This document shows positions 6,819-39,440 of a DNA stretch of 64,000 nt, piece by piece. Source of the stretch: Octopus sinensis (taxonomy: Eukaryota). Position numbers and translations under genes: made by a program. The notes under the pieces are model-generated. The model made no database searches, was not told the DNA's origin, and saw only the letters and a program-made list of their open reading frames with translations. The stretch's first letter is position 1; each line of letters opens with the position of its first letter. Location of the stretch: assembly GCF_006345805.1 (NCBI RefSeq), contig NC_043004.1:88412001-88476000 (forward strand), read 5' to 3'.

Positions 6819-7419
6819 CTGTATATACAGTTGTGTGTAAGTACAATGCGTGTGTGTGTGTTTGTGTATGTGTGAGTGCGTATGTGTTGAGATAATAATG
6901 AGGAAATAGGTGAGACAGTGGAAGAGATACTGAGAGGGAGAGAGGGAGAGAGAGAGACGGAGTGAAGTAATTATAGAAAGAAAGATTATTCTAATAACGT
7001 AGTTTATGATAAATATGGGGCTGAATAACTATTCCATTCAAAGACAATTCAATTCTTCACTAAATGCATATACAAACGGATTGCGTACACTAATTCATTC
7101 ACTCATTCATGCAAATTTTTATGTATATACGTATGTACATACTTACACAGGTACAAACACAAACACATGCACACACACATATATATATATATATATACCT
7201 GAGGAACAAGTTAAAGGTAAAATAAATATATATGTGTGTGTGTGTCGTTGAAGGCTCGAACTGAGGAGTAGATAGCTGAGAACTGATGAAAGACCGTTCT
7301 TTGTGTTACTTGTTCTGTTTTCCATATTTTCTGTCGTTGTTTGCGTATTTAACTCGTTTGTTTTCGTACTTCATGTTGTTTACAGTTGGTGATGTCCTGA
7401 CATATATATATATATATAT

Positions 7420-7790
7420 ACTGTTATACTTGCGGATGGTGATATATTGCCAGTTAAGCATATGCACTTTATATTTGGTTTTCACCTCAGCTTTATTATT
7501 GTTATTATCATTAATATTGTTTTAGATTCAGTTTCTTTGTGAATTCAGTAACTTCTATGTTGAAGTAGAGACAACATGTTCTTTGTCTATCTCCTTAACA
7601 TCTTGGAGATTGTAGGTATAATTATACTAATGTATCCATCTGCTCTAATTTAATTAAATTTTATATTCTTGGGCAGTCGAGATTTGCTCTGCATTTTAAA
7701 TTGATATAATGATTGCATTGTTTAATTAAATAGAGTTGCATGAAACGATCTTAGTGCATTACCTCTGGATATCCTTGTTGCTTATTTTGA
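7420..7790 (-). mobile_element. Highly degenerate Penelope-like ORF fragment
   Basis: Minus-strand remnants KQQGYPE and SKSRLPKNIK resemble the HYP and KSKRQPKS motifs of the other PLE copies in this window. Confidence 0.35.
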
Positions 7791-23809: not shown

Positions 23810-23849
<40 letters not shown>

Positions 23850-24225
23850 CTTTACCTTCCCCTCTCTCTCTCCCTCTTCCTCATCTCTCTCTCAGCCGCG
23901 TGTCTGCCTCTCTCTCTCTCTCTCACTCCTCCTCACTTTTGTCACTGCTAATCCTTTTGCACGCTGCTTTCAAACCGTAAAGTCATGTTTCCATGCGCTT
24001 GCCAGAACCTCTTCCGTCCCAGCCAGAACAAAGGCCTTTTCGTTTGTTTTCTTGTTTATTTTGATTTCTCGTATTGTATTTTATTTCTCGTTTTGTATTT
24101 TCTTGTGCATGTATTTTTATCTTGTATTTTATTGTGCAGTTTTATTGTTACGTCCTGTTTGTGTTACATTTTTTCGTGCTTGTTTTACCCCTCTGCGAGG
24201 TTATTTTATTTTAATTCTCTCGCAG

Positions 24226-24300
24226 GAAGGCCTAGTATTGACGAGTCGTGTCCTGTCTTGCCTTCGAAACACGCTTATGTCTACTAGCGACAGCTGATGA
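24226..24300 (+). ncRNA. Candidate non-circularly permuted hammerhead ribozyme (copy A, intact)
   Basis: gaaggc ctagta ttgacgagt cgtG-UC ctgtc tt gccttc GAAA cacg cttatgtc tactag c gacag CUGAUGA. Four perfect helices and all core nucleotides are present. Confidence 0.75.
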
Positions 24301-24709
24301 TTGGGGATTTTCCTTGTGTAGCTTGTCCTGTACCTTGTTTTTCTGTTGTAAATAATGCTTTTCCTGTTTTCGTTCTCGTCCTGTTCCACGTCTCTGTCAT
24401 TCTGTTGTAAAAAAATGACTTTTCCGTTTTCGTTTCTGTTGAGTTCTACGTCTTTTTGTGGTGTCCTGTACTTACGTATATATATTTATATATGCATGTA
24501 TATATACATGTAGATGTAGGTACGTACATATATGTTTGTATGTATGCATATATTTTATTTATTACACTATATATATATATACATACATATGTATATCTAA
24601 ATATATATATGTATATATATGTATATATATGTATATATATATGTACATATATATGCATATACATATATATATGTCTGTGTGTGTATGTGTGTGTTTTCCA
24701 TACTTAGAT

Positions 24710-26657: not shown

Positions 26658-27565
26658 ATATATACATATATATATACAAACATACATATATTTATATATA
26701 TATATATGTATGTATGTATATCTAAGTATATGTGTCTGTGTGTATCTTTGTGAGTATGTGTATATGTGTGTTAGAGTATGTCTATACTTATGAATATTGT
26801 ACGACAGCGATGTAATCAATTTCATTCTTGCTAAACAATTTTTAAGAGATTATAATAGATTACCGAAATAATCTGCTTATTTCAGCACATTTTTATCACT
26901 TAAGTCTAATTTTTATATTTTTCCTGCTTTCATTTATTACAACTAAATTAAAGGAACGATAAGAAAAGCAGCTAAAAGAAATCTCCTCCTTTACTATATA
27001 TTCGCCATTTTGTTTTCCTAATTCCCATTTTACATGTTATTTCTTCGTTACCATTTATTTACTTCAAAGGAATGTTTATAACCTCTTAAATTATCAATGT
27101 GTTGTTTTATTGGTAACATTGTTCTACATGGTTTAATGCATTCATTGAGTGAAGAGGCGTTAGACCACGAAAGTCACACTATTGCAATAAGATGGTGGTG
27201 ATAAAAATGGTGTCGGTGATGCCGGTGATATACCAAATGTACTGTCAGCCGAATTTCATATAAAATTTATAAAAATAGCTTTGCCATTGTTTTTACATAG
27301 GCCAAGGAAATACCAAAATAGAGCTAATTTAATTTCTGTATATAACACATACATACATACATACATACATACATATGCATATATATGCGTATATATATAT
27401 ATGTATATATTTATACATGTATGTGTGTATGTGTGTATATATGTCTATATATACACACTTATTCATATATATATATATATAAGAATGAATGTTTTTATAT
27501 ATAATGAACGTGAAATACAGGAAGGGACGAACACGGAACACAGACAAATCATTCGAAGCCTTCAA

Positions 27566-27672
27566 TCTTCAGTCAGACACCGAATCATCATAGCAAATTT
27601 CGGCTGTTATATATATATGACTGGCTTCGAACATATGCTCTCACAACGCTTGGGTCACCCCAGGTCGCAGCA
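27566..27672 (-). ncRNA. Degenerate rearranged hammerhead-like motif (copy D)
   Basis: gctg...agcata-UG ttcga...cagcc GAAA tttgct...tctga CUGAAGA; same strand order as copy A, with several mismatches. Confidence 0.4.
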
Positions 27673-28769: not shown

Positions 28770-28805
28770 TTTTTAACGTTTCGAGCTTATATCTTCGTCA
28801 GAAAA
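28770..28805 (-). ncRNA. Short-stem-III hammerhead (family H)
   Basis: tttt CUGACGA agatataagctc GAAA CG UU aaaa; canonical core, damaged stem II. Confidence 0.55.
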
Positions 28806-28860
28806 GAAAACGGAAAAGTCTAGAGAAGGAAAAAAATTTCACGAGCAGCACGTGGGTGGT

Positions 28861-38487: not shown

Positions 38488-38790
38488 TCACAAGAGAGAG
38501 ACAGAGAGAGATAGATAGATGTATAATATATGTAATATACATACATATGCATATATACATACATATATGTACATACCTACATATATATGTATATATAATA
38601 TATATAATATATTATATATATATATTATATATATATATATATATACATACATGCATATATGGGTACAGGCGATAACAAAAAGTAACACAATGGGAAACGA
38701 AAACGAAAAAACAAAAACATTGAAAACGAACATTTTTCGAACAACGAAAAAAACAGAGAAACGAGAGATGCAACATAAAGAACATTCCCT

Positions 38791-38868
38791 TCATCAGTTG
38801 TCCCTTGTTTCATCTACTCCGCGTTACGAAGGTAAGGACAATACTCGACTTCGTTAAAACAGTCCTTC
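38791..38868 (-). ncRNA. Candidate non-circularly permuted hammerhead (copy B)
   Basis: gaagg ac tgtttta acgaagt cgaG-UA ttgtcc tta ccttc GUAA cgcg gagtaga tgaaaca ag ggacaa CUGAUGA. Helices covary with copy A; A13 is replaced by U. Confidence 0.65.
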
Positions 38869-38914
38869 CCGCAAAACCAATTAAATAAAATTAAGGATTT
38901 TAAGCGGAGGGTGA

Positions 38915-39440
38915 GTGTGGTAAGACAACTGTGTAGTAAGACGTTTGCTTCTCAACTACATTGTTTTGGTTTCAGCCCCACTACGAAGCAGCGTGGGCGA
39001 CTGTCTTCTGCTAAATGTGTGGGTGTGTGTAATATATATACATACATACATATGTGTGTGTGCATGCGCGTGTGTTCGCGTGTATGTTCGCGTGAGTATA
39101 TGAGTGTGCGTATGCGCTTGAGTATGTGTATGTGTATGTGTATGCGTGTCTATATATGTGTACATATGTATGTATATAAATATATATATATATATAATAT
39201 ATATATATAATATATATATATTTACATATATATGCGTGTATGTTTCTGTTTGTTCCCCATTACGGCTTGACAACCGGTGATGATAGGTTACCATCCCCGC
39301 ACCTTAGCGGCTTGGCAAAAGTGACTGGTAAAATAAGAACCAGGTTTAAAAATGATTAATACGAGGGTTGATTCGTTCGATTGAAATTCATCAGAGTGTC
39401 GCCCCAAGATTGTCGCCGTCTAATGACTGAAACAAATGAA
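38915..39440 (+). mobile_element. SINE family B, old copy with an expanded internal microsatellite
   Basis: Head at ~38915-39012; 3' part ggcttgacaaccgg...ttagcgg...gtctaatgactgaaacaa. Confidence 0.6.

Follow-up and report, generated by a model that had tools for sequence, protein, structure and literature searches.

Positions 38791–38868 of the window (the whole stretch of 64,000 nt that was analysed) carry on the minus strand what is, with high probability, a decayed split-core hammerhead, copied from a ribozyme that likely cleaves itself and located in a non-coding tandem repeat that was likely moved by a Penelope-like enzyme. This copy is referred to as copy B. A second copy in the window, copy A (24226–24300, plus strand), was identified by its sequence and by the descriptor given below; it belongs to the younger sister family A (copy 23846–24570, units of about 850 nt), and its ribozyme looks intact.

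Arrangement of the strands

Read on the minus strand, copy B starts with the 5' strand of stem II, GAAGG (positions 10.1–10.5 of the hammerhead; 38868–38864), which is detached from CUGAUGA and was assigned from the sequence and a stem II swap matrix. Then follows the 5' arm of an extra helix, TGTTTTA (38861–38855), which connects stem II to stem I at their distal ends and was placed from the sequence and the pair states in the copies. The 3' strand of stem III and the cleavage triplet (GAG plus UA) lie at 38842–38847, the triplet GUA itself at 38844–38842, and the cut is predicted between 38842 and 38841, where copy starts pile up. Downstream of the cut are situated the 5' arm of stem I, TTGTCC (38841–38836), a 3 nt linker TTA together with the 3' strand of stem II (38828–38835, CCTTC at 38832–38828), and the G12-A13-A14-A15.1 element, which reads GUAA (GTAA, 38827–38824) with the U at 38826 in the place of A13. 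The 5' strand of stem III, ACGCG (38820–38824, CGC at 38823–38821), the 3' arm of the extra helix, TGAAACA (38812–38806), the 3' arm of stem I, GGACAA (38803–38798), and the core strand CUGAUGA (CTGATGA, 38797–38791) complete the structure; by sequence and swap matrix, the strand after CUGAUGA does not form stem II. The extra helix includes one U.G pair. Stem III contains a single mismatch, A.G at 38845, where comparison with the family copies gives C in place of A.

A sequence-only reading of this DNA had named these strands, the GUA triplet, the intact CUGAUGA, the GUAA in place of GAAA, the one mismatch in stem III and the helix sequences of copy A. All of them were located by direct inspection of the sequence, those of copy B on the minus strand.

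The strand order is thus II5'-extra-III'/cut/I'-linker-II'/GAAA/III-extra'-I/CUGAUGA. This corresponds to a type-SGC hammerhead opened between A9 and G10.1, the missing stem II strand being supplied from 70 nt upstream. A descriptor consisting of CUGANGA, GNAA, UH and the four helices matched copies A and B only in the window and gave 4 matches in 300 resampled windows, a control that flatters the two copies because the descriptor was derived from them. Taken by itself, the word CTGATGA is about as frequent in the window as chance predicts (12 occurrences, 9.9 expected), and a search with Rfam at gathering score returned no matches.

Covariation of the helices between families

The hammerhead core CUGANGA, GAAA and NUH is present in the majority sequences of families A, B1, B2 and C and in the single copies of families D and E, and stems I, II and III around it are present with covariation across families. 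The extra helix is 5–7 bp long in every family and covaries as well; judged by its sequence it would brace stems I and II. The linkers from stem I to stem II comprise about 1–5 nt depending on the family.

From copies A and B alone, compensatory change had been proposed for two helices, the extra helix and stem I. The covariation turned out to be wider, since all four helices vary between families and stem III, too, differs between A and B, with U-A in A and C-G in most B copies, a change that had been overlooked; for stem I, however, the difference between A and B amounts to one pair changed and one gained. The proposed selection on structure is supported by the covariation across families but acted on the source elements and not on the inserted copy B. 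Stem II is identical in copies A and B, so this pair alone could not reveal the stem II partner.

Within family B, one pair of the extra helix is C-G in 26, U.G in 3 and U-A in 13 of 44 matched copies, and copy B is a U.G intermediate in this series from C-G through U.G to U-A. A second pair of the extra helix shifts from U-A to C-G in run X6 (43% and 49% of depth, unphased).

The same design with other stems was observed in single copies of two further families, D and F (L004 and L027), and the pattern search for family E returned its own copy as the sole match. In metagenomes a pattern search gave at least 119 matches; the helices were absent from 79 of the 80 loci fetched, and the full design was found in one. 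This locus, L353 (record JACCDR010061988.1, AT-rich and outside this genome), shows the complete split-core design with a stem I of 6 bp, a stem III of 5 bp and 9 of 10 pairs in the extra helix (by eye).

Copy starts at the predicted cut

To locate copy ends, we used a sample of 90 of 119 copies whose sole selection criterion was a perfect match to a 35-mer downstream of the cut. Among the 58 copies reaching +3, 15 end at −4 to +3 of the cut compared with 8 over the preceding 36 nt (p 9e-7; the end windows were set after the data had been seen, and the TA flanks blur ends by 1–3 nt). The excess of starts at the cut hints indirectly at cleavage. Another 15 ends pile up on GAAA, at +13 to +17 (p 2e-5). 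These ends are distributed as 1, 5, 4, 2 and 3 over the five positions, A13 being at +15, and hence lie on both sides of this base; six of the 15 are at or 5' of G12, i.e. beyond it. By eye, none of 30 copies of family A, which is younger and has intact cores, and 3 of 30 copies of family C start at the cut, so the footprint is not general. The copies that read through the cut do so without a scar, the first base after it being changed in 2 of 43, which is equally compatible with circles, multimers and uncut RNA.

One alternative is that a genuine, selected fold has lost its cleavage activity and instead serves as a hammerhead-derived binding or pausing signal for a retroelement protein. The majority of A copies and roughly half of the B copies indeed cross the site scar-free, and since the reverse transcriptase also stops at GAAA, structure alone gives pile-ups of ends. 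On the other hand, all catalytic bases and the UH triplet are kept in five families with different stems, and the ends of family B gather at exactly the predicted bond. We therefore regard a non-cutting fold as unlikely.

The detached stem II strand

In other families stem II reads GGCTG/CAGCC, GCACC/GGTGC and GAGCA/TGCTC, as obtained from a scan of the fetched flanks. A swap matrix was set up with 8 copies of 5 families with 4 stem II sequences. The upstream strand forms 5 of 5 Watson–Crick pairs within its own family and 1–2 of 5 across families, and for the strand after CUGANGA there are only 0–2 Watson–Crick pairs in any family.

These data bear on the reading of the element as a plain type-SGC hammerhead, in which the purine-rich strand after CUGAUGA would be stem II and the upstream GAAGG an off-switch. 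For A and B1, 4 of 5 pairs are indeed possible with the downstream strand if G.U is counted and 1–2 nt are inserted, and the SGC-2 construct has, according to its oligonucleotides, one extra U at this place (Eckert et al. 2023, PMC10085705). Apart from the low Watson–Crick count in every family, however, there are at most two pairs of any kind in C and three in B2. Within families A and C the downstream strand is variable and the upstream strand constant, and the extra helix is placed behind the upstream strand exactly as the brace between stems I and II is placed behind stem II in type-SGC. This reading is consequently very improbable. That the arrangement is a chance assembly of short complementary words can be dismissed: the strands are 5–7 nt long, but the cross-family covariation, the descriptor control and the thousands of related copies refute it.

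The swap test gave no support for a possible fourth helix, in which the U-rich strand preceding stem II would pair with the purine-rich strand following CUGANGA. Duplexes formed within a family have weak energies (−0.2 to −6.0 kcal/mol) and for the most part do not outdo those formed across families.

With a folding program that does not handle pseudoknots, the fold of copy B is little better than that of shuffled sequences (z −1.3), and the nested folding of family B favours a rod in which the core is buried. This long, imperfect rod can form between the U-rich leader and the core from −50 to +33 around the cut in family B, and also in family E (L195). A rod concealing the ribozyme could possibly represent an off state.

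Family majority and decay of copy B

The sequence-only reading had predicted that a family consensus would restore GAAA and a paired stem III, and both predictions were borne out. GAAA was found in 68 of 100 B1 and 90 of 100 B2 sequences among the matches listed (of 294 and 146, respectively; counted by hand, with fixed-length patterns that miss deletions). At 38845, C is present in 17 of 18 B2 copies and in 56 of 65 other copies that read through the cut. The majority thus has neither GUAA nor unpaired helices, and the breakage of stem III is limited to copy B.

Compared with the majority of the 18 B2 read-through copies, copy B differs at six ribozyme positions, two of which are 38845 and 38826, the latter being A13 (A in 15 of 18). 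The suggestion that copy B is probably decayed holds inasmuch as it differs from the family majority, but GUAA itself is a recurrent change at one position and not ordinary decay. Copy B is a decayed family member, and with GUAA and the broken stem III pair its ribozyme is predicted to be slow or dead.

Recurrent changes at A13

Position A13 is a mutational hotspot in family B, which is a new observation. Among the matches listed, A13 is changed in 32 of 100 B1 sequences (T 13, G 14, C 5; counted by hand) and in 10 of 100 B2 sequences, copy B being one of them, and in none of 100 sequences of family C; no change was found in 30 copies of family A. The changes comprise GUAA, GGAA, GCAA and losses of 1–2 nt. 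With these losses included, A13 is altered in 33 of 65 copies extending past the cut compared with 6 of 35 copies starting at or after it (Fisher p 0.0012). Hand counts among the matches listed gave changes at A14 or A15.1 in 16 of 42 sequences with a changed A13 and in 9 of 158 others; in the locus sample, from which deletions were left out, this association was absent (4 of 29 and 8 of 61).

In addition, the hotspot is visible at L135:646 in runs X4, X5 and X7 (T 9–14%, G 7–10% of summed depth). It is missing from run X6 (0.4% and 0.9%) and from run X8 (window position 38826, all A), where the relatives bear other markers.

We considered, at roughly even odds, that the enzyme stalled and miscopied at A13 in B1, and less so in B2, mainly on uncut templates; the stall could be brought about by structure or by a base mark. 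A-to-I editing was rejected as the cause, as it accounts for G only, and the rates of change at other A sites are 4.0% and 2.9%. GUAA was also rejected as a subfamily marker because copies carrying it occur on all marker backgrounds and do not group into a clade.

The main competing explanation, a reasonable though distinctly weaker candidate, is that the changes were inherited from source copies with dead ribozymes, which gave full-length templates, so that selection and not miscopying would account for them. This would fit the enrichment in read-through copies, the dependence of the rate on the subfamily and on the run, and a mix of T, G and C that is not clearly unlike that of other A sites. 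But the remaining core positions show no such enrichment of changes among read-through copies (0–3 of 21 each, against 9 of 21 at A13), and this includes G12, which lies in a fast-mutating CpG. A tree of 86 rows, from which three long ones had been dropped and which is star-like, speaks on both sides. The state of A13, intact or changed, clusters slightly (21 changes, shuffles 26.4 ± 2.3, 4 of 300), as inheritance would have it. GUAA copies, in contrast, form no clade (22 changes, shuffles 23.9 ± 1.7), and one supported clade of 14 rows contains A, T, G, C and deletion states at A13; among the marker controls three of four cluster on this tree, and one that should be inherited does not.

It is rather improbable that A13 is a hotspot at the DNA level that acted after insertion, for example by repair in the long imperfect hairpin that is open to read-through B copies alone. 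Family B is able to fold a long rod across the cut, but divergence elsewhere is alike in copies with a changed A13 (0.058, 27 copies) and an intact A13 (0.062, 24 copies), so the state of A13 is not tied to the age of a copy. Furthermore, templated repair would favour one base, whereas the changes seen include T, G, C and deletions, and family A shares the TTCGAAAC context without any change at A13.

Tandem and inverted neighbours were rejected as proof that one template had been copied repeatedly, as they differ at A13 and at subfamily markers at several loci. In L081 and L151 we observed similar deletions of about 16 nt between two GAAAC repeats within the ribozyme.

The carrier repeat

Copy B resides in a 5'-truncated family B repeat with mixed B1 and B2 subfamily markers, which blastn places at 38583–38923 on the minus strand. 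The match to a tandem unit extends from 38900 to 38583 (84.5%, blastn) and that to a B2 copy from 38923 to 38630; the 3' end is blurred by a TA-rich stretch and is probably at about 38520. A first-look search of the genome (2.72 Gb) yielded 5,085 candidates for family B, the best with 87–90% identity to copy B, and 2,272 for family A, the best with 93–98% identity to copy A.

The tandem units are non-coding, comprise 748 nt (L018) or 849 nt (L044) and contain one hammerhead each; the ribozyme region and the TA-rich stretch are common to both. Most family B copies are scattered and truncated. The copies are truncated at the 5' end, often flanked by (TA)n and often adjoined by an inverted partial copy. 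Their 3' ends gather in the TA-rich part, away from the cut, as is expected from internal initiation. For a Penelope-like element (PLE) of Anolis, internal initiation has been described, and ribozyme cleavage was unnecessary for insertion in vitro (Frangieh et al.). Tandem units, inverted truncated partners and (TA)n flanks are described as traits of PLEs and Naiads in the part of the publication available here (Craig et al. 2021, PMC8557442).

No open reading frame was found in family B, and the long reading frames at the B and A loci are low-complexity sequence or parts of other elements. A coding partner with a B-like tail was searched for and none was found. The reverse transcriptase fragment beside L009 was rejected as a partner, as the B copy there sits within an unrelated element; the fragment belongs to an element with a C-terminal GIY-YIG domain and a different tail.

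Several further elements were noted. A third family with this ribozyme, family C (1,858 exact matches to a 33-place pattern), is represented in the window at 27551–27606 and 1680–1878, both on the minus strand, and the first of these copies begins at the 3' strand of stem II directly after a TA run. Positions 7243–7421 of the plus strand contain a decayed truncated copy like family E (79%). At about 28770–28810 on the minus strand, CUGACGA, a short hairpin, GAAAC and a palindromic AACGTT were seen, an arrangement that resembles a minimal type I hammerhead and would belong to another element. The loci L253–L262 belong to a Penelope-like family with reverse transcriptase and C-terminal GIY-YIG motifs and open frames of up to 1,120 aa (908 candidates); its tail has a hammerhead-like core with CUGAUGC for CUGAUGA in the five copies whose tail is printed that far. 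At L062, L166, L214 and L266 there are head-to-head insertions in which one copy begins at the cut and the inverted partner stops within the strand of stem III; it looks as though the enzyme had switched template via the stem III complementarity.

Comparison with known systems

Type-SGC hammerheads (HRIMA-1 and a variant), as far as they are described in the accessible part of Eckert et al. (2023, PMC10085705), share with the split form the block order cut site, GAAA, CUGAnGA, all core bases, a short linker joining stems I and II (typically 3 nt in type-SGC) and a helix bracing these two stems. The difference is that in the split form block C is broken between A9 and G10.1 and that the stem II strand and one arm of the brace are situated 5' of the cut; a stem II strand directly following CUGAnGA, or following after no more than 1–2 inserted nt, was not found. 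Types I, II and III have the circular order C-G-S and no core pseudoknots, whereas the order here is S-G-C. From these sequence comparisons the split form would be a hammerhead variant that has the SGC block order but a broken block C, and it is predicted to cleave.

With the Naiad PLEs, in the portion of Craig et al. (2021, PMC8557442) at hand, the families share (TA)n targets and tandem and inverted truncated insertions; unlike Naiads, family B has no open reading frame. The same source notes an 'HHR_half_core' in eight Naiads including Naiad_Ovul and, in that portion, gives no fold for it. By eye, the published consensus tails of Naiad_Obim and Naiad_Ovul have the same split design with GACAC/GTGTC. 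No likeness of family B to these two tails beyond the fold was seen by eye, nor was the split design seen in the tail of Naiad-3_Dst, another half-core case.

Non-LTR retrozymes, in the excerpted account of Li, Clavereau and Pollet (2026, 10.64898/2026.07.22.740005), are likewise non-coding tandem units with one hammerhead each, comprise 51–972 bp and have been proposed to be non-autonomous PLE derivatives. They are, however, defined and searched for by a type I hammerhead, a search that would miss the split form, which does not have the type I arrangement. No description of the split form was found in the literature covered, which leaves out most subscription journals.

The reverse-transcription signature of m1A, in the part of Hauenschild et al. 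(2015, PMC4787781) available, consists of mismatches at one A and arrests just 3' of it. Mixed mismatches at one A are found at A13 as well, but the family B pattern is read from genomic copies and not from cDNA, and the ends lie on both sides of A13.

Proposed course of events

The RNA of the tandem unit would fold into the split-core pseudoknot and be cut after GUA or GUC by hammerhead chemistry, releasing RNA of unit length; cutting after such a triplet is ordinary hammerhead chemistry. A reverse transcriptase may then prime in the TA-rich stretch, 260–340 nt downstream, at a (TA)n target. Run-off at the cut would give short copies, and long or tandem copies such as copy B would arise where the cut is crossed on uncut, multimeric or re-joined RNA.

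More speculatively, and with rather little confidence, the split-core hammerhead would cut in cells and be the ribozyme thought to be missing from Naiads, an m1A-like mark on A13 would have switched off some of the family B RNAs, the uncut RNAs would have given the long copies, and the mismatches and stops would be the fossil record of this mark. The T-loop-like word UUCGA, which we take to be a methylase motif, is also present in family A, which has no hotspot.

If correct, the split core would be a seventh hammerhead wiring and would overturn the assumption, underlying the six-permutation scheme, that stem II is inseparable from CUGAnGA. Eckert et al. (2023, PMC10085705) made this assumption, and the split form is not among the forms tested in the part of their paper available to us. 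It would be a non-circular permutation present in high copy number in an animal genome, and it is a candidate for the ribozyme that is reportedly lacking in Naiad elements. The A13 hotspot makes it testable from sequences whether cut or uncut RNA serves as the template for Penelope-type insertion, and it also bears on whether a base mark switches ribozymes off.
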